Assembly (NCBI RefSeq): GCF_001677475.2
Contig: NZ_CP015229.1
Direction: 5' to 3' (one strand)
DNA: 64,000 bases
Origin: Escherichia coli
GTDB taxonomy: Bacteria; Pseudomonadota; Gammaproteobacteria; Enterobacterales; Enterobacteriaceae
Notes under the pieces: generated by a model
Database searches by the model: none
What the model saw: only the letters and a program-made list of their open reading frames with translations
What the model was told of the DNA's origin: nothing
In this document: piece after piece, positions 16 through 15,403 of the stretch
How the letters are laid out: each line of letters opens with the position of its first letter
Numbering within the stretch: position 1 is the stretch's first letter
Translations under genes and position numbers: made by a program

Positions 16-2088
16 TTATTGTGTGTAAATGTCTCCCTTTAAAAAGTCTGGCCAGTTTTTTTCAAAGTAAATACCGTTAATACACGGTTGCATACGTAAA
101 GACTTTACTTCGGTAATAAAAGAACCTTGCGAATATTGAATTGTTAATTTGTGATTTTTATCTTCAGCGAGTTCAGAGCGAAAACGCCATTCTTCTTTTA
201 CGCCGCGACGAGTTTGTGGTAGGCATTTGCCTTGTGGATCAATAACCATCCGCGCCCCACGACTGCCGCCACCAGCATCAATATAATGCGTTAATTGTGT
301 TAATACCGCGGCAGAAGTCAGCGCCATATGCCGCCACATAAACAGCTCGGAAACTTCACCCACATGTTTGATTGCCAATCCATGCCGTTGGACAAATTCG
401 TTCAATAGCAGGGCATCGCGAGTGGCGCGTCGGACTTTATCGGCATGGCAAATAAATCCCGCATAGTCAGACATTCGTGCCTGAATTTTTTCTCTCACAA
501 CCGACAACGGCATCCCGGTCCCGTTATCGTGCGCCTGAGTAATGATCTCTCTTATAGAAGCCAGTGCCGGAGCTGCCAGCTGTGCTATATCTCCATCAAT
601 ATTCCGCTTTTGCGTGCAACCAATAAAACGTGCCAGACGCACGGCAAAAACCTGCCCGGCATTCAATGCCGCACCACCAGGGCGAGTGACGCCGTGTGTG
701 CCAGCAACTTCCCCCACTGCAAAACAACCGGGCAGAGATGTTTGTCCCCAGATATCCACTTCAATGCCGCCATTCATATGCTGATTATTCATGGCAAACT
801 GCAATGGCTGCGTGGTGAGATCGTAACCGTGCATCTTATACAGCGAGATAGACAGCGGATTCATTCGTTGCAGTCGTTCGATGGGCGATGGCGCCAGGGC
901 GTCGTTATTTTCCAGATACGCGCGAACGTCGTCGTCCAGTCGTTCTAATGAGAATGGCAGGTCACCCGGCACAGGTTCAGGATTGCGATTGAAATCCATA
1001 AATACCTGACGCCCTGATTGCTGCTCTTGCGCCACCGCCATATCTAACAAGCTGGAGCCAAAATCCATTACCCGCGTGGCGTGGAACGGCCACTGATAGC
1101 CTTTACGGAAGATGTTTGAAGCCAGCTCCTGGGTGGTGCGATAGTAATCTGCGAGGAAGTTATACTCGTTGCCCTCGGCATCCACGGAATAGATATATGG
1201 GATCACTTGTACATAGGTGCCGGACAAATTCCACGGAAACGTGCTGCGCGGCGTGCCTATACCAAACTGGCTTTCGGTCAGATTAGTTAGTGTCAGGCCT
1301 TCCTCCAGCGCCAGCCCCAGCGAGCCAAAACATTTGTGTGGGTACACACTGTCGCGATAAAGCTCGCCCGGCCCGCCTGTTGCCAGTACCACATTGGGCG
1401 CAGTCACAATTGCCAGCCCCCACGGGTTATGGGCGCGGGAACCGGTTGCGAGGATAGCCCCGGCCACACGATCTTCGCCGTTTTCACCGCGTTGATGCAG
1501 CAGTTTAATCACCGTTGCACTGGTCAACAGTGGGATGGCGAGGCGCTGCACTTCTTCGAGCAATACTTTCACCATCAGACGAGAAGTGCGCGGCCCACAG
1601 GAGGTTGCGCGTCCGGCTTCGTCATGGTCGGTCTGATAACGGAGAATTGCACCATAGCGATCTTCCGGTAATTCCAGACCGAGATATTGCAGCCCGCCAA
1701 GGGTATGTAGGGAACCGACCGCTTCGACATACGCCGTGTCGTGATCCATCGCACCGCCGCTCGCCAGTGCTTCAGCAAGTTTTGCGAAGTTATCGCCGTT
1801 GCCCGCCGTTGCGGCGGTAAACAGCGTCTGTTTATCGGAACCGGAGCAGGCCGATGTTCCCATGTATAACCCGGCGGTGGCGATTAGCACATTTTGCTGG
1901 CGACGTTTCAGTTCAACCGCCGCACGTAATCCTGCCGCGCCGCTACCAACGACCAGAGCATCTGTTTGCCAGAGCGGGTAATCAACACCGTCCACCGTGA
2001 CAATTGACGTTGGCTCTGCTGACACAAAACCCTTCGGGAAAGTGACGTGCGTCAGCGCATCGAGGATGGCGTCATCAGTCTGGCTCAT
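16..2088 (-). CDS. FAD-dependent oxidoreductase, fumarate reductase/succinate dehydrogenase flavoprotein-like (KstD/TcuA-type), 690 aa
   Basis: Full-length ORF; Rossmann motif VVGSGAAG about 45 aa from the N-terminus followed by a GTSACSGS motif; start overlaps the stop of the upstream CoA-transferase gene by 4 bp. Confidence 0.7.
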   Translation of the reverse strand: MSQTDDAILDALTHVTFPKGFVSAEPTSIVTVDGVDYPLWQTDALVVGSGAAGLRAAVELKRRQQNVLIATAGLYMGTSACSGSDKQTLFTAATAGNGDNFAKLAEALASGGAMDHDTAYVEAVGSLHTLGGLQYLGLELPEDRYGAILRYQTDHDEAGRATSCGPRTSRLMVKVLLEEVQRLAIPLLTSATVIKLLHQRGENGEDRVAGAILATGSRAHNPWGLAIVTAPNVVLATGGPGELYRDSVYPHKCFGSLGLALEEGLTLTNLTESQFGIGTPRSTFPWNLSGTYVQVIPYIYSVDAEGNEYNFLADYYRTTQELASNIFRKGYQWPFHATRVMDFGSSLLDMAVAQEQQSGRQVFMDFNRNPEPVPGDLPFSLERLDDDVRAYLENNDALAPSPIERLQRMNPLSISLYKMHGYDLTTQPLQFAMNNQHMNGGIEVDIWGQTSLPGCFAVGEVAGTHGVTRPGGAALNAGQVFAVRLARFIGCTQKRNIDGDIAQLAAPALASIREIITQAHDNGTGMPLSVVREKIQARMSDYAGFICHADKVRRATRDALLLNEFVQRHGLAIKHVGEVSELFMWRHMALTSAAVLTQLTHYIDAGGGSRGARMVIDPQGKCLPQTRRGVKEEWRFRSELAEDKNHKLTIQYSQGSFITEVKSLRMQPCINGIYFEKNWPDFLKGDIYTQ

Positions 2089-3626
2089 GCGTCCTCCATT
2101 GGCGTAAACAGGCTACTTTCCATCAGGCGCGGCTGGTTGATAATTGGACGGAAAGCCATGAACGGCAGAATGTCGCGGTCAATCTCCACGCCCGGCGCGA
2201 TTTCAATTAATTCAACGCCTTCTGCCGTTAACTGAAACACCGCGCGTTCAGTGATATACAACACTTCCTGACCGCTGTGCTGTGCGTAGGCGGCGCTAAA
2301 AGTGATTTTTTCCACCTGAGTAACCAGTTTAGGGATTTGACCTGACTGGGCGATATGCAAGCCATCTGGCGTTACATCAATCTTGCTGCCTTTGGCGTCG
2401 AACGTGCCGCAGAACACCACCTTACGGGCGTTTTGCGCAATTTCGAGAAATCCGCCGGGGCCAATCAGATTGCCATTGAGATGGGAGACGTTGACGTTAC
2501 CGTACTGATCCATCTCTCCCATGCCGAGGAAGGTGATATCGATCCCTCCGCCACTGTAGAACTCAAATTGATCGAGTGATGGAATAATGGCATCGGCGTT
2601 GCGGGCGCAGCCGAAAAACGCATCATCCAGCATCATACCGTTATGCACGCCTTGCTCGACGCTCAGCCATAAACTTTGGTAAGGCACGCCTTCGCGCAGC
2701 GCTACTCCTGGAATGCCGCCGGGAATACCAAAGCCAAAGTTGGTTGAAGCGCCAGCTACCAGTTCGCGTGCTGCCCGACGGGCAATCAGGCGACGTACCG
2801 GATGACTAACCAGTTCAATAGCGTCGTTAGAACTCAGACGGCGATGTTGGCCGCTGATGGTCAGGTCGTAACCGCCAAGATAGGTTTGTGGCTGTTCGCG
2901 GTGTTCAACGATGCCATCAACCAGAATGCCCGGTAATTTGACTCGGCGTGGTTCAATCGCGCCAGCTTCCAGCACATCGCGTACCTGTACAAACACTTTG
3001 CCGCCGCTGTTGTGTGCTGCCAGCGCCATGGAATAGCTATCCATATCAATCGCTTCTTCTTCAAGGCTGACGTTGCCCCGAGGATCGGCATAAGTGCCAC
3101 GCAAAATCGCGTAATCGACTTTGAAAGGGCGATAACGAAGTTTGGTTTCACCGTCGATTTCAATCAGTTCTACCAGGTCGTCGGTAGTGCATTCATTCGA
3201 CTTACCGCCGCCATTGCGTGGATCAACAAACGATCCCAGCCCAACGTGGGTAAAAAGCCCCGGACGTCCGGCGCCGATCTCCCGTAGCAGTGCCTGAATC
3301 ACGCCACCAGGAAAACAATAGGCTTCAATCGCGTTATTTTTTACCAGCGCCTGCATTTTGGGTGACCAGGTAAAGTGTCCGGCAATAATGCGTTTGAGCA
3401 TTTCAGCATGAGCGAAGCGGTTCGTGCCTTTGCAGTCGCGATCGCCAATGCCCAGCGAGTGGATTAATGTCAGATCGCGCGGGTGTCCGGTTTGCAGGAA
3501 GCGCGCTTCAATGGCTGCCAGAATATGGTCGGCTTCCACCATGCCGCCGCCGTTACCGCTAATGGCAATGGTTGCGCCATCCTGAATTTGCGCCGCCAGT
3601 GCCTCGGCGGTTGTTATCTTACGCAT
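2085..3626 (-). CDS. Family I CoA-transferase (acetyl-CoA hydrolase/transferase-like, fused subunits), 513 aa
   Basis: ORF with N-terminal AISGNGGG and a central glycine-rich region typical of fused CoA-transferases; 9-bp spacing to the upstream gene. Confidence 0.7.
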   Translation of the reverse strand: MRKITTAEALAAQIQDGATIAISGNGGGMVEADHILAAIEARFLQTGHPRDLTLIHSLGIGDRDCKGTNRFAHAEMLKRIIAGHFTWSPKMQALVKNNAIEAYCFPGGVIQALLREIGAGRPGLFTHVGLGSFVDPRNGGGKSNECTTDDLVELIEIDGETKLRYRPFKVDYAILRGTYADPRGNVSLEEEAIDMDSYSMALAAHNSGGKVFVQVRDVLEAGAIEPRRVKLPGILVDGIVEHREQPQTYLGGYDLTISGQHRRLSSNDAIELVSHPVRRLIARRAARELVAGASTNFGFGIPGGIPGVALREGVPYQSLWLSVEQGVHNGMMLDDAFFGCARNADAIIPSLDQFEFYSGGGIDITFLGMGEMDQYGNVNVSHLNGNLIGPGGFLEIAQNARKVVFCGTFDAKGSKIDVTPDGLHIAQSGQIPKLVTQVEKITFSAAYAQHSGQEVLYITERAVFQLTAEGVELIEIAPGVEIDRDILPFMAFRPIINQPRLMESSLFTPMEDA

Positions 3627-3635
3627 ACAATTTCC

Positions 3636-4412
3636 TTAGTGATTATGGAAGCTCACGCTACTTTTTTCGGCAAATGCCTGCGTCGCCTGCTGGCAATCCT
3701 GAGTGGCGGACATTAATCCAGCCAGTAACTGGTGTGGGTATTCAGCGTGTTTATTTTCCAGTGCCAGAATCAGCTGCTTAATATGCGCCAGTGCCACCGG
3801 ACCACATTTTTCCAGCTGCGCTAACTGGTTCGCCATCCAGCTTTCCACCTGTTCTTTTTCTACTACTTCATCAATTAAATTCGCCGCCTGGGCTTCATGC
3901 GCCGTCAGACGTTTACCTAGCATCAGCATCTGGCGACCGACCACTGGGCCGACCTGATTAATCACGCGTTCAATGCCCATCCAGCCAGGCACCATGCCGA
4001 GCATGACTTCCGGGTTAGAAAATTTCGCGCTGGGGCGAGCGATTCGAATATCGCAGCACAAGGCAAGTTCAATACCGCCGCCGATGGTATGACCGTTGAG
4101 ATTCGCAACCGTTAATTGCGGTAAATTGCGCAGGCGATTAAAAACGTCATTGCCGCGTTTAATCCATTTTCTGCCCATATCTAATGGCGAATAGGCCGAC
4201 CACGATTTAATATCACCGCCCGCACAAAAGAATTTATCGCCGATTGCCGTTAATTCGACTAATCGTAATGTGGTGTCGTTTTCAATTTCATTTAAATAAT
4301 GGTCGAGAGATTCAATCATCTCTTCGTTAATAGCATGACATTTCTCTTCACGGTTCAACGTCAGGCGGCAGGAAGCCGCCGCTCTGCTGAACAGAACGGG
4401 TTGGTCACTCAT
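3636..4412 (-). CDS. Enoyl-CoA hydratase/isomerase (crotonase fold), 258 aa
   Basis: ORF with crotonase-like motifs (FCAGGDI, HTIGGGIELAL). Confidence 0.75.
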   Translation of the reverse strand: MSDQPVLFSRAAASCRLTLNREEKCHAINEEMIESLDHYLNEIENDTTLRLVELTAIGDKFFCAGGDIKSWSAYSPLDMGRKWIKRGNDVFNRLRNLPQLTVANLNGHTIGGGIELALCCDIRIARPSAKFSNPEVMLGMVPGWMGIERVINQVGPVVGRQMLMLGKRLTAHEAQAANLIDEVVEKEQVESWMANQLAQLEKCGPVALAHIKQLILALENKHAEYPHQLLAGLMSATQDCQQATQAFAEKSSVSFHNH

Positions 4413-4421
4413 GATTATTCC

Positions 4422-5264
4422 TTAGCAATAATTCGCGATGCGATCGACGCTAATATCCAGCGTGTTGTTAATATCTTTCTGCCACCAGTACGGTGAGAAT
4501 ATTTCCAGTTCAATAGCGCCATTAAATCCGGCGTTTTCAACCAGTCGACGAATTGACGGAATATTTATCACGCCATCTCCCGGCATTCCCCGGTCATTGA
4601 CCAGATCGGTGGTCGGCACTAACCAGTCGGAAACATGAAACGCGAGAATACGTTTTCCGGCGCGCAGGAGCTGGCTGGCCAGATCCGGATCCCACCAGAC
4701 ATGGTAAACATCCACAGCCACGCCGAGGCCAAATTCGCCATCGGGATCGAGTTCATCACACCAGTCCAGCGCCTGGCGTAACGTGCACAGGCAAGAGCGA
4801 TCGGCGGCGGTCATTGGGTGCAGTGGCTCCAGCGCAATCGGCACGCCAACGTCTTTCGAATGTGGCAGTAACTGGCGTATCCCTTGTTTCACCTGTTCCC
4901 GTGCTTCATACAGATCTTTTGTGCCCTGCGGTAACCCGCCAACCACCTGCATATAACAGGCGGCGTTCAGCACCGCTGCGTCGTCCAGCGCCCGGCGGTT
5001 ATCATCAATTGCCAGTTTGCGTTCCGCCAGCGTCGGCGCGGTGTAGTAGGTGCTACGGCATAAACCGGAAACGCGCATGTTATTGACGGCAAGCTGGCGG
5101 GCGATCTGCTGAAGATCTTCACCCTGCAACTCTCTGCGCCAGGGGGCGATCGCACCGATACCGCGTGCGGCACAGGCATCAATAATGGCGGGTAGCGGCG
5201 TTTTATAGCCCAGTGTTGCGGTATTGATACTGAATAAATCCGGGCGTTGTAACAGATCTCTCAT
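4422..5264 (-). CDS. Sugar phosphate isomerase/epimerase (xylose isomerase-like TIM barrel), 280 aa
   Basis: ORF whose translation resembles the AP-endonuclease-2/xylose-isomerase-like TIM-barrel family. Confidence 0.65.
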   Translation of the reverse strand: MRDLLQRPDLFSINTATLGYKTPLPAIIDACAARGIGAIAPWRRELQGEDLQQIARQLAVNNMRVSGLCRSTYYTAPTLAERKLAIDDNRRALDDAAVLNAACYMQVVGGLPQGTKDLYEAREQVKQGIRQLLPHSKDVGVPIALEPLHPMTAADRSCLCTLRQALDWCDELDPDGEFGLGVAVDVYHVWWDPDLASQLLRAGKRILAFHVSDWLVPTTDLVNDRGMPGDGVINIPSIRRLVENAGFNGAIELEIFSPYWWQKDINNTLDISVDRIANYC

Positions 5265-5273
5265 GATTCAGCC

Positions 5274-6065
5274 TCAGAAGCGCGGCATACTTAAGCCGCC
5301 GTCGATGGCGACCGCCTGACCACAGGTGTAAATCAGTTTACCTTCCGCCATCGCGCGGACGGTGGAGGCAATATCAGCCGGATAACCCCAACGTCCCCAC
5401 GGCACCAGACCTTTGGCAATCAGTTCGTCGTAATAAGCCGTTGCTGGAATAGTCATATCGGTTTTGATGAGACCAGGGCGCACTTCATAGACGCCAATTT
5501 GTTCGTTGCAAAGGCGAGCAGCAAACAGACGAGCAGCGGCAGAAACGGCGGTTTTGGCAATTGTGTATTCGCCGCGATTCATCGCCAGCATGATGGCGTT
5601 GATGGAACTGACAAAAATAATTGAGCGGTGCGGGAATTCTGTTTCTGGTTTTGGCTGTGCGAGCAGACGTTTACTGAATGCCTGTGCAAGGAAGAACGGT
5701 GCGCGGGTGTTAATGGCAATATTTTGGTCGAAGCTGTCTGGTTCCAGGTCGAGAAGGTCACCGCGTTTTTTCACTGAAATGCCTGCGTTGTTGAGCAGGC
5801 AGTCCAGACGTCCCCACTGGTTTTGCGCTGCGTCGAGCATCTCTTCATGCAGGGAGAGATCGCCAACATCGGCAGGGAAGCAAATCACTTCCACGCCTTC
5901 CGCCAGACATTCTTGTTGTGTGACATGTAATTTTTCAACGCTATCGGCATCCGGACGATCATTAATCAGCAGATTAAATCCGCCACGCGCAAGCTCCAGC
6001 GCACAGCCCTTTCCAATACCACGAGCGGCTCCGGTAATCACGGCAACAGGACGAGTGGATTTCAT
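5274..6065 (-). CDS. Short-chain dehydrogenase/reductase (SDR), 263 aa
   Basis: N-terminal TGAARGIG cofactor motif and YxxxK catalytic motif (YTIAK); first gene of the five-gene operon. Confidence 0.8.
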   Translation of the reverse strand: MKSTRPVAVITGAARGIGKGCALELARGGFNLLINDRPDADSVEKLHVTQQECLAEGVEVICFPADVGDLSLHEEMLDAAQNQWGRLDCLLNNAGISVKKRGDLLDLEPDSFDQNIAINTRAPFFLAQAFSKRLLAQPKPETEFPHRSIIFVSSINAIMLAMNRGEYTIAKTAVSAAARLFAARLCNEQIGVYEVRPGLIKTDMTIPATAYYDELIAKGLVPWGRWGYPADIASTVRAMAEGKLIYTCGQAVAIDGGLSMPRF

Positions 6066-6133: not shown

Positions 6134-6155
6134 ATCAACCATCTAGTTGGTTGAT
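6134..6155. promoter_or_regulatory. Perfect 8-bp inverted repeat ATCAACCA-tctagt-TGGTTGAT in the divergent SDR/TetR promoter region; candidate TetR operator
   Basis: Palindrome read directly from the sequence; position between divergently transcribed regulator and operon. Confidence 0.4.
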
Positions 6156-6277
6156 ATGCGATGACGATCACAGGACATTTGATAACCTGATGAAAGTACA
6201 AGTTTTTGCCCTTTTTTCTGAAGCTGAAATCAAATCAGGTTATGATAGTCACCACGAAGAGGTCGTGGGGAAGCGTT

Positions 6278-6925
6278 ATGTATATTGATACCAGCAACGT
6301 ACAGAGCCTGAAGGAAAAGCTGCTGTTATGCGCGGTTAATGAATTTGCCGAATATGGTTATGAAGGGGCCAGGGTCGATAATATTGTTAAGTCTGCGGGG
6401 TGTAGTAAACAGACGGTTTATCACCACTTTGGTAATAAAGAAAATTTATTTATTGAAGTACTGGAATATACCTGGAACGATATTCGAAAAAAAGAAAAGG
6501 CCCTTGATTTCTCAGATCTTCCGCCACAAAAAGCCATTGAGAAAATTATTGATTTTACATGGGATTATTATATTGCTAATCCCTGGTTTTTAAAAATTGT
6601 GCATAGTGAAAATCAAAGTAAAGGTGTGCATTATGCAAAATCACAGCGTCTCTTAGAAATTAACCATGCGCACTTGCAGTTAATGGAATCCTTATTGGAG
6701 GAAGGGAAGAAACACAATATTTTTAAGCCAGATATCGACCCATTGCAGGTGAATATTAATATTGCTGCGCTTGGGGGATATTATTTGATCAACCAGCATA
6801 CGCTTGGCCTGGTTTATCACATCAGTATGGTTTCACCCCAGGCACTGGAAGCCAGACGTAAGGTCATCAAAGAGACGCTCCTTAGCTGGCTTTTGGTTGA
6901 CCCCTCATCTACCGCGCACGAATAA
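6278..6925 (+). CDS. TetR/AcrR-family transcriptional regulator (intact counterpart of the K-12 ytfA fragment, by recollection)
   Basis: N-terminal HTH region ([27 protein letters not shown]); ATG at 6278 preceded by a GGGGAAG Shine-Dalgarno-like sequence; the track ORF begins further upstream at a TTG. Confidence 0.75.
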
Positions 6926-7547
6926 AACTGCCATCCGGCTGACGGGTAAACAGGACCTGTTGATTATTCCCCGTATCAATGGTTAAGCCCGTCACCACGC
7001 CGCTGGCGTTCTGGCGGATTTTCACCATCTGCCCGTTTTGCAAATTACTCAGCGGCTTATCCGCGCCTTCTACCTGCGCCATTGCATAGACATCGGTAGC
7101 GGGCAGTCCGTGGTCGCGGAACAGCTGCGCCATCGTTTTACCGGGTTCGACACGGTAAGAGCGCCATTGATTATCAATTCCGCTATCTGGCTGGAATGGT
7201 TGCGTTTGGGTGGTTTGCGGCTGCTCTTCTGGCTGGCCTTCCTGTATTGGTTCTGGAGCGACCGGGGCCACCTGATCAGGATCATTTTGTGGCGTAACTA
7301 GCTGCGCCCGCAGCTGTTCTTCTGTCGGCAGTTGTGATTGCGACTGAATATCTAACTGCGCTTCACGCGTCACCACCGGCGCGTTGGGCGTATCATCAGA
7401 TGGAAGCAGAAATCCGACCACCAATACAATGGCGGCAATAATGATCCCCCGACGATGCATCGGCGGCAGCGGGTCCATGAAGCGAAAATTGTCCGGCGCG
7501 TGCCAGACTTTCTCCAGGGTTGGTTTTAGTTCAAAGCGCCCGGGCAT
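6909..7547 (-). CDS. ytfB: YtfB, OapA/LysM-domain cell-division-associated protein
   Basis: Translation matches the recalled YtfB (212 aa from MPGRFELKP); the track ORF is extended upstream. Confidence 0.85.
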
Positions 7548-7764
7548 GGTTTCCTCCTGCTCCGCGTCTTGTTCCTCAATCATAGCCTATGAATAAGCTA
7601 ACGCTATGATGTCCGTGGTAAACCCGCCTTTATTATATTCATACGGGATATTGCTATTGTTTCTTTTTCCCCGGGATTTGTCATCATTCCCGCGACAAAG
7701 TTTTACCCAAAGAAGTGTGGCTGATATGCTGCCCGCTACTTTATACCCTAAGAAAGGAAATACG

Positions 7765-13450: not shown

Positions 13451-15403
13451 TTACTTACTCAAATCCACCTGATAAATCGCAAACCCGATATCATCGGTCG
13501 CGACTTTATTCATCGGATATTGCCCTTTCTCTTTAATAAACGCTGCGGCTTTATCTGATGGAGAGGTTTCGAAACGGATATCCAGTTTCTTATCGCCAGC
13601 AATCGGTGCTAAACGCCAGTTGTTATCTGCCGCCGGGTGAATTTCCCCCGCACGTTTCGACTCATCAGCAATCCACGCTGCCAGCACCGAGCGGTTCTCA
13701 TCCGGTGAAGCAAAAGCGATATGGCTGTCGCCCGTACCAGCAAATTTGCCGCCGTAAGCGCGATAGTTATTGGTGGCAACGAGGAACATGGCGTTCGGAT
13801 CAATGGGTTTACCGTTAAAGGTCAGGTTCTTAATCCGCTCTGCATTGGCATTAACCACCTGACATTCACCGTCATAACGGGCGGGTTGGGTAACATCAAT
13901 CTGATAATTCACACCATCAATAACATCAAAGTTATAAGTGCGGAAACCATCCCAGTTGATGAGTGACTGTGGTTTCGTGCTGTTAGGATCAATCTGGTTA
14001 AACTGTCCGGCGGAGCACTCCAGCCACTCTTTCACCTCTTTACCGCTGGCTTTCACCACAATCAGCGTATTGGGGTAGAGATAAAGATCGGCGGCATTAC
14101 GGAAGGTCAACTGGCCTTTTTCCACCTCCACATAGCTTGCCGGGTCATTTTTGCGACCACCAACTTTAAACGGTGCGGCAGCTGAAAGCACCGGCAGTTT
14201 TGCCAGATCCGGATCGCCCTGAATGTAATGTTCGACATACGCTTTTTGCGCGTTGTTCACGACTTGCACGGTCGGATCGTCCTGCACCAGCGCCAGATAG
14301 CTATACATATTGTCGGCAGATTTACCGATTGGCTTGCTGACAAACTGGCGTGTGGCATCGTGATCGGCTTTGAGTGTTTCTACCAGCTTGCTATCTTCCG
14401 CCGCGAGGGATTTTTTATTAGCGATGTCGTAAATCGGCCGTGCTTCCGCTTTCGCCTGCATCACCTGCCATTTACCGCTGTCATTACTGAGTTACAAGTC
14501 GACCACACCAAGATGATCGCCCCACATGCCCGGCATTACCGCCGGAACACCATTCAGCGTGCCTTTCGCGATATCAGCCCCTTCGATATCAGCAAAATCT
14601 TTACCTGGGAAAACGGCGTGAGCATGGCCAAACATAATGGCGTTAACGCCCGGAATTTCACTGAGGTAATAAACTGAGTTTTCCGCCATCACTTTATACG
14701 GATCGGCAGACAGCCCGGAATGCGCCAGAACGACAACGAGATCGGCACCTTTCTCACGCATTTCAGGCACGTATTTGCGCACAGTTTCTGTTATATCGTT
14801 AACGGTGACTTTGCCGGACAAATTGGCTTTATCCCACCCCATAATCTGCGGCGGCACCACGCCAATATAGCCAATCTTTAACGTCTGTTTTTTTCCGTCT
14901 TTATCGACCACTTCGGTGTCTTTAATTAAATACGGTGTAAACATGGGCTGTTTGGTTTTTGCGTCGATGACGTTGGCATTTACATAAGGGAATTTCGCTC
15001 CCGCCAGCGCATTTTTCAGGTAATCCAGACCGTAGTTAAACTCGTGGTTGCCAAGCGTGCCGACGGTATAGTCCAGCGTATTTAATGCCTTATAGACCGG
15101 GTGAATATCGCCTGCTTTTAAACCTTTCGCCGACATGTAATCTGCCAGCGGACTCCCCTGAATCAAATCGCCGTTATCGACCAGTACGCTGTTTTTCACT
15201 TCATTGCGGGCATCGTTAATCAGGCTTGCGGTACGTACCAGTCCGAATTTTTCCGTAGCGGTGTCTTTGTAATAATCGAAATCCATCATGTTGCTATGCA
15301 GATCAGTGGTTTCCATGATACGCAGATCGACCGTCGCTGCATTTACACTGGCGGCAATCAGCGTGGCCAGGAGCGTTGCGCTAAACTTAATCATCAGGGA
15401 CAT
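13451..15403 (-). pseudogene. cpdB: cpdB (2',3'-cyclic-nucleotide 2'-phosphodiesterase / 3'-nucleotidase) interrupted by an in-frame TAA
   Basis: Two same-frame ORFs (14492..15403 and 13451..14464) separated only by a stop codon at 14492..14494 (minus strand); together they span the full-length protein. Confidence 0.85.

Follow-up and report, generated by a model that had tools for sequence, protein, structure and literature searches.

This study concerns a 690-residue flavin adenine dinucleotide (FAD) flavoprotein and its operon, encoded at one end of a 64-kb stretch of Escherichia coli DNA (contig NZ_CP015229.1, 64,000 nucleotides; hereafter the window). A sequence-only reading of the window had noted the open reading frame (ORF) at positions 16–2088 without its strand. 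The ORF list bears out these coordinates and places the gene on the minus strand, as are all features below unless stated otherwise. It ends in a TAA stop codon at 18–16. The NCBI annotation of E. coli and the gene calls in Klebsiella and Salmonella give an identical gene model, including the start. The translation matches Pfam FAD_binding_2 (PF00890) over residues 43–475 (E = 8e-29, 101.5 bits against a cutoff of 20.4), and sequence searches returned homologues numbering in the thousands; the flavoprotein gene is therefore real and not a chance ORF. The Rossmann dinucleotide-binding motif VVGSGAAG, reported earlier as lying about 45 residues in, occupies residues 46–53 of the translation (1930–1953), with G48 and G50 invariant (invariance here and below was assessed over 48 sequences).

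The operon runs in the order short-chain dehydrogenase/reductase (SDR), triosephosphate isomerase (TIM)-barrel enzyme, enoyl-CoA hydratase, CoA-transferase and flavoprotein, all on the minus strand, with a TetR-family gene divergent from it. The SDR (263 aa, 5274–6065) scores 418.7 bits against NCBIfam PRK12745 (cutoff 250). It is the most persistent partner of the flavoprotein family-wide, found in 31 of 82 loci and in both tiers of relatives described below. The xylose-isomerase-like TIM-barrel enzyme (280 aa, 4422–5264) matches Pfam AP_endonuc_2 and PDB entries 3QC0 and 3JU2 (E = 3e-86), and gene order places it, in the closer tier, among the flavoprotein's core partners. The enoyl-CoA hydratase (258 aa, 3636–4412; Pfam ECH_1, E = 3.7e-46) contains GGGIELAL and NPEVMLG, both of the motifs that carry the two catalytic Glu residues known from crotonases in general. 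The fused class I CoA-transferase is YdiF/FadX-like (513 aa, 2085–3626) and matches Pfam CoA_trans and the YdiF structure 2AHU (E = 8e-114). The structural matches of the SDR (4DA9, 4ONE and 5VN2) and of the TIM-barrel enzyme (3QC0, 3JU2 (SMc04130) and 7VPF) are structural-genomics entries without an assigned function. Identification of the TIM barrel as a 3-dehydroshikimate dehydratase or IolE was considered and found unsupported, its strong matches all being uncharacterised; it matches IolI at 1e-5, and its best NCBIfam match is IolO at 7e-7.

Direct reading of the sequence confirmed that the flavoprotein ATG (2088–2086) and the CoA-transferase TGA (2087–2085) share an ATGA at 2085–2088, as had been noted before. 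A Shine–Dalgarno sequence, GGAGGA (2092–2097), lies 3 nt before the ATG, within the CoA-transferase coding sequence. The translational coupling proposed earlier is supported, since the ATGA overlap and a ribosome-binding site inside the upstream gene fit co-translation within one operon. Two ORFs from E. coli assemblies resemble fusions of the two genes: P0008 (1078 aa) has both CoA_trans and FAD_binding_2 matches, and P0029 (1043 aa) has the CoA_trans match alone, yet matches 88% of the flavoprotein. These apparent CoA-transferase/flavoprotein fusions possibly arose by loss of the ATGA stop or by miscalling.

The divergent regulator gene (6278–6925, plus strand; Pfam TetR_N and TetR_C_29) is the full-length version of the K-12 ytfA pseudogene. 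Its mechanical ORF start is a TTG at 6206, and the annotated E. coli start, used here, is the ATG at 6278. The 3′ end of this gene (6925) overlaps the convergent ytfB-like gene (6909–7583, minus strand) by 17 nt. An inverted repeat search of the divergent promoter region located a 22-bp palindrome, ATCAACCATCTAGTTGGTTGAT, at 6134–6155 (no strand assigned), which occurs once in the window (0.01 expected). Among E. coli, E. albertii, Klebsiella and Salmonella its core is preserved within intergenic DNA that diverges on either side, and it is a likely candidate operator of the TetR regulator. The palindrome was also flagged by a terminator scan, owing to the T-run that follows it.

The window stops 15 nt past the flavoprotein stop codon, and the downstream gene was read in other genomes. 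In E. coli FDAARGOS_497 (L001, 7646–8923) it encodes a major facilitator superfamily (MFS) transporter of the D-galactonate (anion:cation symporter, ACS) subfamily. In another E. coli strain (L003, 12103–14946) a tripartite ATP-independent periplasmic (TRAP) system, DctQ-DctM-DctP, stands there instead, its permease closest to YiaN, the 2,3-diketo-L-gulonate transporter. In Brenneria roseae (L005, 12248–13645) a PcaK-like aromatic-acid/H+ symporter (AAHS) lies directly 3′ of the flavoprotein gene; an anaerobic C4-dicarboxylate (Dcu) transporter adjoins it on the opposite strand (13845–15188). The transporters of the enterobacterial-type operons are thus all carboxylate carriers of the ACS-MFS, TRAP or AAHS-MFS type. 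A copy of the operon with 90–95% nucleotide identity to the window was found in 3161 of the 5426 complete E. coli genomes (58%). It sits between yjfZ and ytfB, and the Klebsiella oxytoca group and some Salmonella have the operon at this same site. In K-12 MG1655 just the 402-bp ytfA pseudogene (4427694–4428095) lies between yjfZ and ytfB, and the whole operon has been deleted.

An AlphaFold2 model of the flavoprotein was built on the 48-sequence family alignment. The model was confident (pLDDT 92, pTM 0.93), with only residues 1–12 below a pLDDT of 50. Foldseek against the PDB aligned it with FrdA and SdhA over ~665–690 alignment columns (E = 4.5e-30, 15–18% identity; TM score 0.78, normalised to FrdA), and hhalign to E. 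coli FrdA gave a probability of 99.5% over residues 39–623. The modelled architecture is that of the standard four-domain complex-II/NadB flavoprotein fold preceded by an N-terminal lead. It includes a helical domain as in SdhA, FrdA and NadB (residues 473–604; 277–672) and a C-terminal beta-rich domain with an SRG motif at 609–611 (residues 605–690; 19–276), delimited from the model, from conservation and from the FrdA tail length. This last domain is conserved to residue ~688 in both family tiers, and the tail past the SRG motif has 79 residues against 71 in FrdA.

The sequence-only reading had attributed the length of the protein to unusual extra regions at both ends, in comparison with KstD and TcuA. 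These comparators form a short two-domain class without the helical domain, to which the flavoprotein does not conform. The supposed extra C-terminal region is an artefact of that comparison, being a domain common to all SdhA/FrdA/NadB-class proteins, and the domain check found an architecture that is standard for the fold rather than unusual. At the N-terminus the lead is indeed long, with GxGxxG beginning at residue 48 where E. coli FrdA has it at 12 and the distant tier at a median of 26.5, but the overall length is normal for the fold. The lead is two-layered. A beta-hairpin (residues 27–43; 1960–2010), predicted to pack before Rossmann strand 1 with strands at 28–32 and 35–41 (pLDDT above 90), is family-wide and found in both tiers. 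It is preceded by a further ~22 residues with a clade-specific motif, AILDALTHVTFPKG (residues 7–20; 2029–2070; consensus ILDxLTxVxxP). This motif is present in all relatives of 53–60% identity, from Escherichia to the alpha-proteobacteria and Lentisphaeria, is absent from the 36–41% tier, and lies in a region modelled at low confidence (pLDDT 44–69). The length that was first flagged is therefore ordinary, and the true oddity of the protein is its rewired active site together with a comparative context without CoA genes.

The active site was read within the Fcc3 motif framework for FAD_binding_2 enzymes (10.1101/2022.01.20.477176), with alignments to NadB, SdhA and FrdA. The Motif I His/Arg pair is aligned and invariant in the 48 sequences: His437, in QHMNGG (residues 436–441; 766–783), corresponds to FrdA His355, NadB His351 and Fcc3 His504, and Arg469, in GEVAGTHGVTRPGGAALNAGQ (residues 459–479; 652–714), corresponds to FrdA Arg390, NadB Arg386 and Fcc3 Arg544. 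In place of the QFHPT/QYHPT substrate-binding motif stands QFG (residues 274–276; 1261–1269), in which Q274 and G276 are invariant. An invariant Gly occupies the FrdA His232 position and the HPT tripeptide, which in FrdA includes the dicarboxylate-binding His232 and Thr234, is deleted; the family has thus lost its Motif II His. The residue aligned with NadB His244 is likewise Gly (Gly276). At the position of the SdhA/FrdA covalent-FAD loop (RSHT..AQGG) there is a family signature, GTSACSGSDKQT (residues 77–88; 1825–1860), with S79, G83, S84, D85, K86, Q87 and T88 invariant. No covalent-FAD His equivalent to FrdA His44 or SdhA His45 was found, residues 70–90 containing no His; depending on the alignment, its position falls on Thr78 or Cys81, with a family pattern of N/C/M.

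Two further family motifs lie in the capping domain, where FrdA has its counterparts of Fcc3 Motif III, the catalytic acid Arg287 and the proton path with Glu245 and Arg248. The first, WNLSGTYVQVIP (residues 286–297; 1198–1233), has W286, N287, S289, G290, Q294 and P297 invariant; in this region of low similarity, hhalign places FrdA Thr244/Glu245 against Gln294/Val295 and Arg248 against a gap. The second, KGYQWPF (residues 329–335; 1084–1104), has K329, G330, Y331, W333 and P334 invariant, and the catalytic Arg287 of FrdA ('LGPRD') falls within it, at Phe335, in a weakly aligned part of the hhalign alignment. The invariant signatures of the family's own are GTSxxxGSDKQT, YxTDxD, GPxTS, WNLSGTYxQxxP, KGYxWPF, SSxxD and SRG, and no Cys is invariant across the family alignment. 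The curated models score far under their cutoffs: TfrA, the top NCBIfam match, reaches 124.5 against 718 in two partial stretches, the NadB model TIGR00551 98.8 against 452.75, the SdhA/FrdA models TIGR01812 and PRK09231 81 against 567.3 and 43.4 against 854, and NCBIfam models for flavocytochrome c are also far below. Because the covalent-FAD His and QFHPT are lost and the curated models fail, the sequence evidence indicates that the flavoprotein is not a fumarate reductase, a succinate dehydrogenase (SdhA) or NadB.

To identify relatives, an exhaustive search of 1.84 billion representative sequences was made. At a threshold of E ≤ 1e-30 it returned 418 representatives, mostly of 600–700 aa, many of them aligned through residue ~688. 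Of the 600 candidate stretches picked out in species-representative genomes, 596 proved to encode a relative (at least 596 loci). The family is spread over Proteobacteria, Planctomycetota, Lentisphaerota, Firmicutes and others, and its members always lie in carbohydrate or organic-acid catabolic clusters. The literature searched yielded no characterised subfamily member, motif or pathway description, and on sequence grounds the flavoprotein is assigned to a large uncharacterised subfamily. Genomic contexts were analysed for the best 80 of the at least 596 loci, in two tiers. The SDR is a conserved partner in both tiers, and the TIM barrel and a Gfo/Idh/MocA-family dehydrogenase (GFO) in the closer one.

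The closer tier has 53–60% identity to the window flavoprotein. In Brenneria a TetR gene accompanies an SDR–TIM–flavoprotein series followed by the PcaK-like symporter, and in Pseudescherichia, Phytobacter and Mangrovibacter the TetR gene accompanies the order SDR–GFO–TIM–MFS–flavoprotein. A Lentisphaeria metagenome-assembled genome (MAG) and a beta-proteobacterium have TIM, GFO and SDR genes immediately before the flavoprotein gene. Many Rhizobium, Devosia and Rhodobacteraceae loci read sugar ATP-binding cassette (ABC) transporter–GMC–GMC–Dabb–LacI–levoglucosan-dehydrogenase-like GFO–flavoprotein–KdgK-like kinase, the alpha-proteobacterial partners thus being GMC oxidoreductases, the levoglucosan-dehydrogenase-like enzyme and the kinase. 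A GltD-like gene near the Pseudescherichia loci was considered as an electron partner and is probably not one: it lies on the opposite strand beside a 1486-aa ORF, an arrangement suggestive of the glutamate synthase genes gltBD (of this pair, the 472-aa ORF alone was domain-checked).

The distant tier (36–41% identity) comprises Phycisphaerae, Planctomycetota, Lentisphaerae, Firmicutes and others. Its typical order is Old Yellow Enzyme (OYE)-type flavoprotein, or OYE fused to a GltD-like Fe-S/FAD module, then SDR, Eda aldolase, the flavoprotein and a KdgK-like kinase, with GH28 pectinases, GH4 or another TIM barrel added in some loci; the Phycisphaerae partners are the Eda aldolase, the KdgK-like kinase and GH28. 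OYE-type flavoproteins neighbour the gene in 19 of the 39 distant-tier loci and in 0 of the 43 closer-tier loci, and P0148 is an OYE–flavoprotein fusion. No OYE-like or FMN_bind electron-input domain was found in the window flavoprotein or its operon. In the Phycisphaerae-type loci L056, L059, L061, L068, L070, L071, L077 and L079, a ~880-aa fusion of an OYE-type FMN domain with a GltD-like module (Fer4_20 and Pyr_redox_2) heads the cluster. Five Phycisphaerae loci (L045, L056, L059, L070 and L079) have a ~500-aa BNR_4-repeat protein, without an NCBIfam match, between the Eda-type aldolase and the flavoprotein gene. IF-2B-family and UvrA genes beside the Phycisphaerae clusters were set aside as syntenic bystanders (MtnA and UvrA).

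Taken together, the retention of His437/Arg469, the alcohol dehydrogenase partner, the carboxylate carriers and the OYE partner lead us to propose that the flavoprotein is a C=C reductase or C–C desaturase. Both this reaction type and a free-acid substrate are inferred, and we rate as roughly one in two the chance that the enzyme desaturates or reduces a hydroxylated organic acid, which would most likely be used in its free form. All characterised members of the fold that the fold and literature searches brought up, such as succinate dehydrogenase and fumarate reductase, UrdA, acrylate reductase, NadB, KstD and cyclohexanone dehydrogenase, transfer hydride between flavin N5 and a carbon (or C–N) beta to a carboxylate or ketone. 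We read the enzyme as a soluble cytoplasmic oxidoreductase with non-covalent FAD and with FAD-binding, capping, helical and C-terminal domains. His437 and Arg469 would clamp an anionic or carbonyl activating group beside flavin N5, and the rest of the fumarate/aspartate site has been replaced by the invariant motifs rich in Trp, Asn, Gln, Lys, Tyr and Asp, which would suit a polyhydroxylated ligand. Hydride would pass between flavin N5 and the carbon beta to the carboxylate or ketone; a conjugated C=C would thereby be reduced, or in the opposite direction formed, in a hydroxy acid of the sugar-acid or hydroaromatic-acid type.

In such a pathway the carboxylate transporter of the operon would import the acid substrate, and the SDR (GFO in other taxa) would act as an alcohol dehydrogenase that creates a ketone. 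The TIM-barrel enzyme would join as isomerase or dehydratase, and the flavoprotein would act downstream of both. The CoA-transferase and enoyl-CoA hydratase of the Escherichia, Klebsiella and Salmonella operons would form an added branch on an acid of the same pathway. In the distant tier, the OYE partners suggest an NAD(P)H-driven reduction, to which they would feed electrons as in NADH:fumarate reductase (FRD) and NADH:acrylate reductase (ARD).

Several observations weigh against this proposal. The contexts vary by tier (hexuronate/2-keto-3-deoxygluconate (KDG)-like, cyclitol-like, aromatic-acid transporter), and the substrate, perhaps also the chemistry, may not be uniform across the family. 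The capping domain aligns poorly to FrdA, and the apparent loss of an Arg287-type acid/base is not firm. Among the genes of the Escherichia operon there is none for an electron donor or acceptor of the flavoprotein. On four or more independent occasions a CoA-transferase and a hydratase have been recruited beside the flavoprotein gene, whose start in Escherichia lies within the CoA-transferase gene; a thioester substrate is therefore conceivable. The Brenneria SDR and TIM-barrel enzyme are 74% and 70% identical to those of the window, whereas the flavoprotein is only 59% identical, and the enterobacterial flavoprotein could have diverged functionally from that of Brenneria.

These last observations belong to an explanation that we consider rather unlikely, namely a beta-oxidation-like CoA module in which the flavoprotein supplies the redox step, in the role that elsewhere falls to an acyl-CoA dehydrogenase. 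The CoA-transferase would activate the imported acid, the flavoprotein would desaturate the acyl-CoA or reduce the enoyl-CoA, the crotonase would hydrate, and the SDR would oxidise the 3-hydroxyacyl-CoA. Analogous steps are those of CaiB, CaiD and CaiA with carnitine, and of AliB, BadK and BadH in cyclohexanecarboxylate degradation. The gene order with its ATGA overlap, kept in Klebsiella and Salmonella, fits such a module, as do both catalytic Glu motifs in the hydratase and the divergence from the Brenneria flavoprotein just described; moreover, no acyl-CoA dehydrogenase was detected in the enterobacterial operon by Pfam. Recruitment elsewhere also speaks for it: CoA-transferase and hydratase homologues (~40% identity) recur close to the flavoprotein gene in L028 (Devosia), L037 (Rhodobacter), L042 (Rubellimicrobium) and L066 (Desulfobacterales). 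In L037 the genes overlap, in the order GST–GFO–flavoprotein–kinase–CoA-transferase–hydratase–aldehyde dehydrogenase–ABC transporter. Given this repeated recruitment next to the flavoprotein gene, the pathway does repeatedly touch CoA chemistry.

Against the CoA module stand the relatives of 57–60% identity (Brenneria, Pseudescherichia, Phytobacter, Mangrovibacter, the Lentisphaeria MAG and the beta-proteobacterium), which lie in SDR/TIM(/GFO) operons without any CoA enzyme. The CoA-linked flavoproteins are polyphyletic, and their nearest relatives, at 72–76% identity, are CoA-free. The Escherichia/Klebsiella/Salmonella clade departs from the family at just 5 of the 163 conserved columns (P139E, A413S, E430Q, V433M and G482A), none of them at a motif, and the idea of a specialised enterobacterial active site was rejected on this basis. 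The L066 locus (MalK–SDR–SDR–MaoC–alcohol dehydrogenase–CoA-transferase–MaoC–acyl-CoA dehydrogenase–flavoprotein–acyl-CoA dehydrogenase–IlvD/Edd) carries two true acyl-CoA dehydrogenases beside the flavoprotein, which itself lacks the acyl-CoA dehydrogenase fold. The characterised relatives found by fold and sequence search use free acids, ketones or aspartate, not thioesters, and to our knowledge no member of this fold family uses acyl-CoA. The module also leaves no role for the TIM-barrel enzyme.

The absence of a CoA-linked clade, the L066 acyl-CoA dehydrogenases and the small number of differing columns argue that the flavoprotein probably performs the common reaction of its family and that the CoA enzymes are an add-on branch. 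The sequence-only reading had cast the protein as the redox step on a CoA ester; the FAD flavoprotein stands, but a CoA-ester substrate is doubtful in view of the CoA-free relatives, the 158 unchanged columns, the polyphyly, the L066 locus and the carbohydrate and organic-acid partners. An acyl-CoA pathway for deoxyribonate in Klebsiella michiganensis was also considered and rejected as a different locus; its cluster comprises a CoA-synthetase, beta-hydroxyacyl-CoA dehydrogenase, thiolase, CoA-transferase and glycerate kinase (PMC6365646).

A narrower version of the proposed reductase/desaturase function is speculative, and we think it improbable as stated: the flavoprotein, SDR and TIM-barrel enzyme would together make up the core of a catabolic route, so far undescribed, by which a ring-shaped hydroxy acid is degraded, and the flavoprotein would bring a new enzyme activity, as ene-reductase or desaturase of a cyclic alpha,beta-unsaturated carboxylate or ketone. 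One possibility within it is a hydroaromatic acid of the quinate, shikimate or 3-dehydroshikimate type as substrate, with the enterobacterial CoA-transferase and hydratase carrying later thioester steps. If true, this would supply genes for a process long known from gut microbes, the reduction of shikimate and quinate towards cyclohexanecarboxylate; the literature searched named no genes for it. An alternative version would be a new uronate-to-KDG route in the Planctomycete relatives.

C–N or C–O oxidation is a doubtful alternative to the proposed C=C/C–C chemistry. Here the flavoprotein would be a NadB-like amine or 2-hydroxy-acid oxidase or dehydrogenase, converting an amino- or hydroxy-sugar acid into a 2-keto acid that in other taxa is then phosphorylated and cleaved by KdgK and Eda. 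The non-covalent FAD and the lack of an Fe-S partner are as in NadB, and 2-keto-3-deoxy acids are the substrates of the KdgK-like kinases and Eda aldolases that follow. Yet the NadB His244 position is Gly and the NadB model fails by a wide margin (98.8 against 452.75), no aminotransferase, deaminase or ammonia-handling gene was found in any of the 80 contexts, and the distant-tier OYE partners point to electron input (reduction) rather than to an oxidase. We give almost no weight to the idea that the protein is one more paralogue of fumarate reductase, succinate dehydrogenase or aspartate oxidase, or a subunit of a complex-II-like or thiol:fumarate-reductase-like complex. The overall fold and best matches agree with it and some database orthologues are named 'succinate dehydrogenase flavoprotein subunit', but every curated model is far under cutoff, and the protein lacks the covalent-FAD His, the His and Thr of HPT and, as far as the weak capping-domain alignment shows, equivalents of Glu245, Arg248 and Arg287. 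Moreover, the operon (SDR, TIM, hydratase, CoA-transferase, flavoprotein and transporter only) has no Fe-S subunit, membrane-anchor or TfrB-like gene, and these genomes have an intact frdABCD at another site.

The flavoprotein has a known fold and cofactor and a known general chemistry. No description of its subfamily, of the active-site and N-terminal motifs or of the pathway was found in the literature searched. A regulated six-gene operon occupies a fixed site in ~58% of complete E. coli genomes, in the Klebsiella oxytoca group and in some Salmonella, and its deletion from K-12 is probably the reason that it has never been studied. Identification of the substrate would add a strain-variable nutrient niche to the gut ecology of E. 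coli, Salmonella and Klebsiella, and would define a new reaction for the fumarate-reductase/aspartate-oxidase fold. It would also let proteins now labelled 'FAD-binding protein' or, wrongly, 'succinate dehydrogenase flavoprotein subunit' be annotated correctly.

In comparison with known systems, the flavoprotein shares with the complex II flavoprotein subunits FrdA and SdhA (PDB 1KF6, 5VPN, 1NEK and 6LUM) the four-domain fold and the His/Arg pair for the distal carboxylate, but not the covalent His, the HPT motif or the Fe-S partner gene. Compared with NadB (PDB 1CHU, 1KNR and 5KXJ), it is ~150 residues longer, has Gly at the His244 position and a capping domain that cannot be aligned by sequence, and its gene lies in a catabolic operon, not with NAD biosynthesis genes. 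The NADH:enoate reductases (the K. pneumoniae NADH:fumarate reductase, Vibrio harveyi ARD and UrdA) have a catalytic domain of the same Pfam family. Retention of the Motif I His/Arg with an altered Motif II has been described as the route of substrate diversification among them (10.1101/2022.01.20.477176), and the flavoprotein likewise keeps the former and has an altered Motif II. In the NADH:fumarate and NADH:acrylate reductases an OYE-like domain feeds the FAD_binding_2 domain (10.1101/2022.01.20.477176). This NADH-oxidising domain is mirrored in the distant relatives by an OYE protein that is adjacent (19 of 39) or fused (P0148).

The ketone alpha,beta-desaturases, comprising the 3-ketosteroid delta1- and delta4-dehydrogenases and cyclohexanone dehydrogenase (PDB 4C3X, 4AT2 and 8AM3), share the FAD_binding_2 fold. 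They act right after an alcohol dehydrogenase has made the ring ketone, a gene logic like that of the SDR or GFO with the flavoprotein. Within E. coli itself, the carnitine cai operon combines a transporter, the CoA-transferase CaiB, the crotonase CaiD and the reductase CaiA, which is the same combination of transporter, CoA-transferase, enoyl-CoA hydratase and flavin reductase for an organic acid. The two systems differ in their enzymes, CaiA having the acyl-CoA dehydrogenase fold and CaiB being a class III transferase, whereas the operon described here has a flavoprotein of the FrdA/NadB fold and a class I YdiF-like transferase, and contains in addition the SDR and the TIM-barrel enzyme that are the conserved partners of the flavoprotein.

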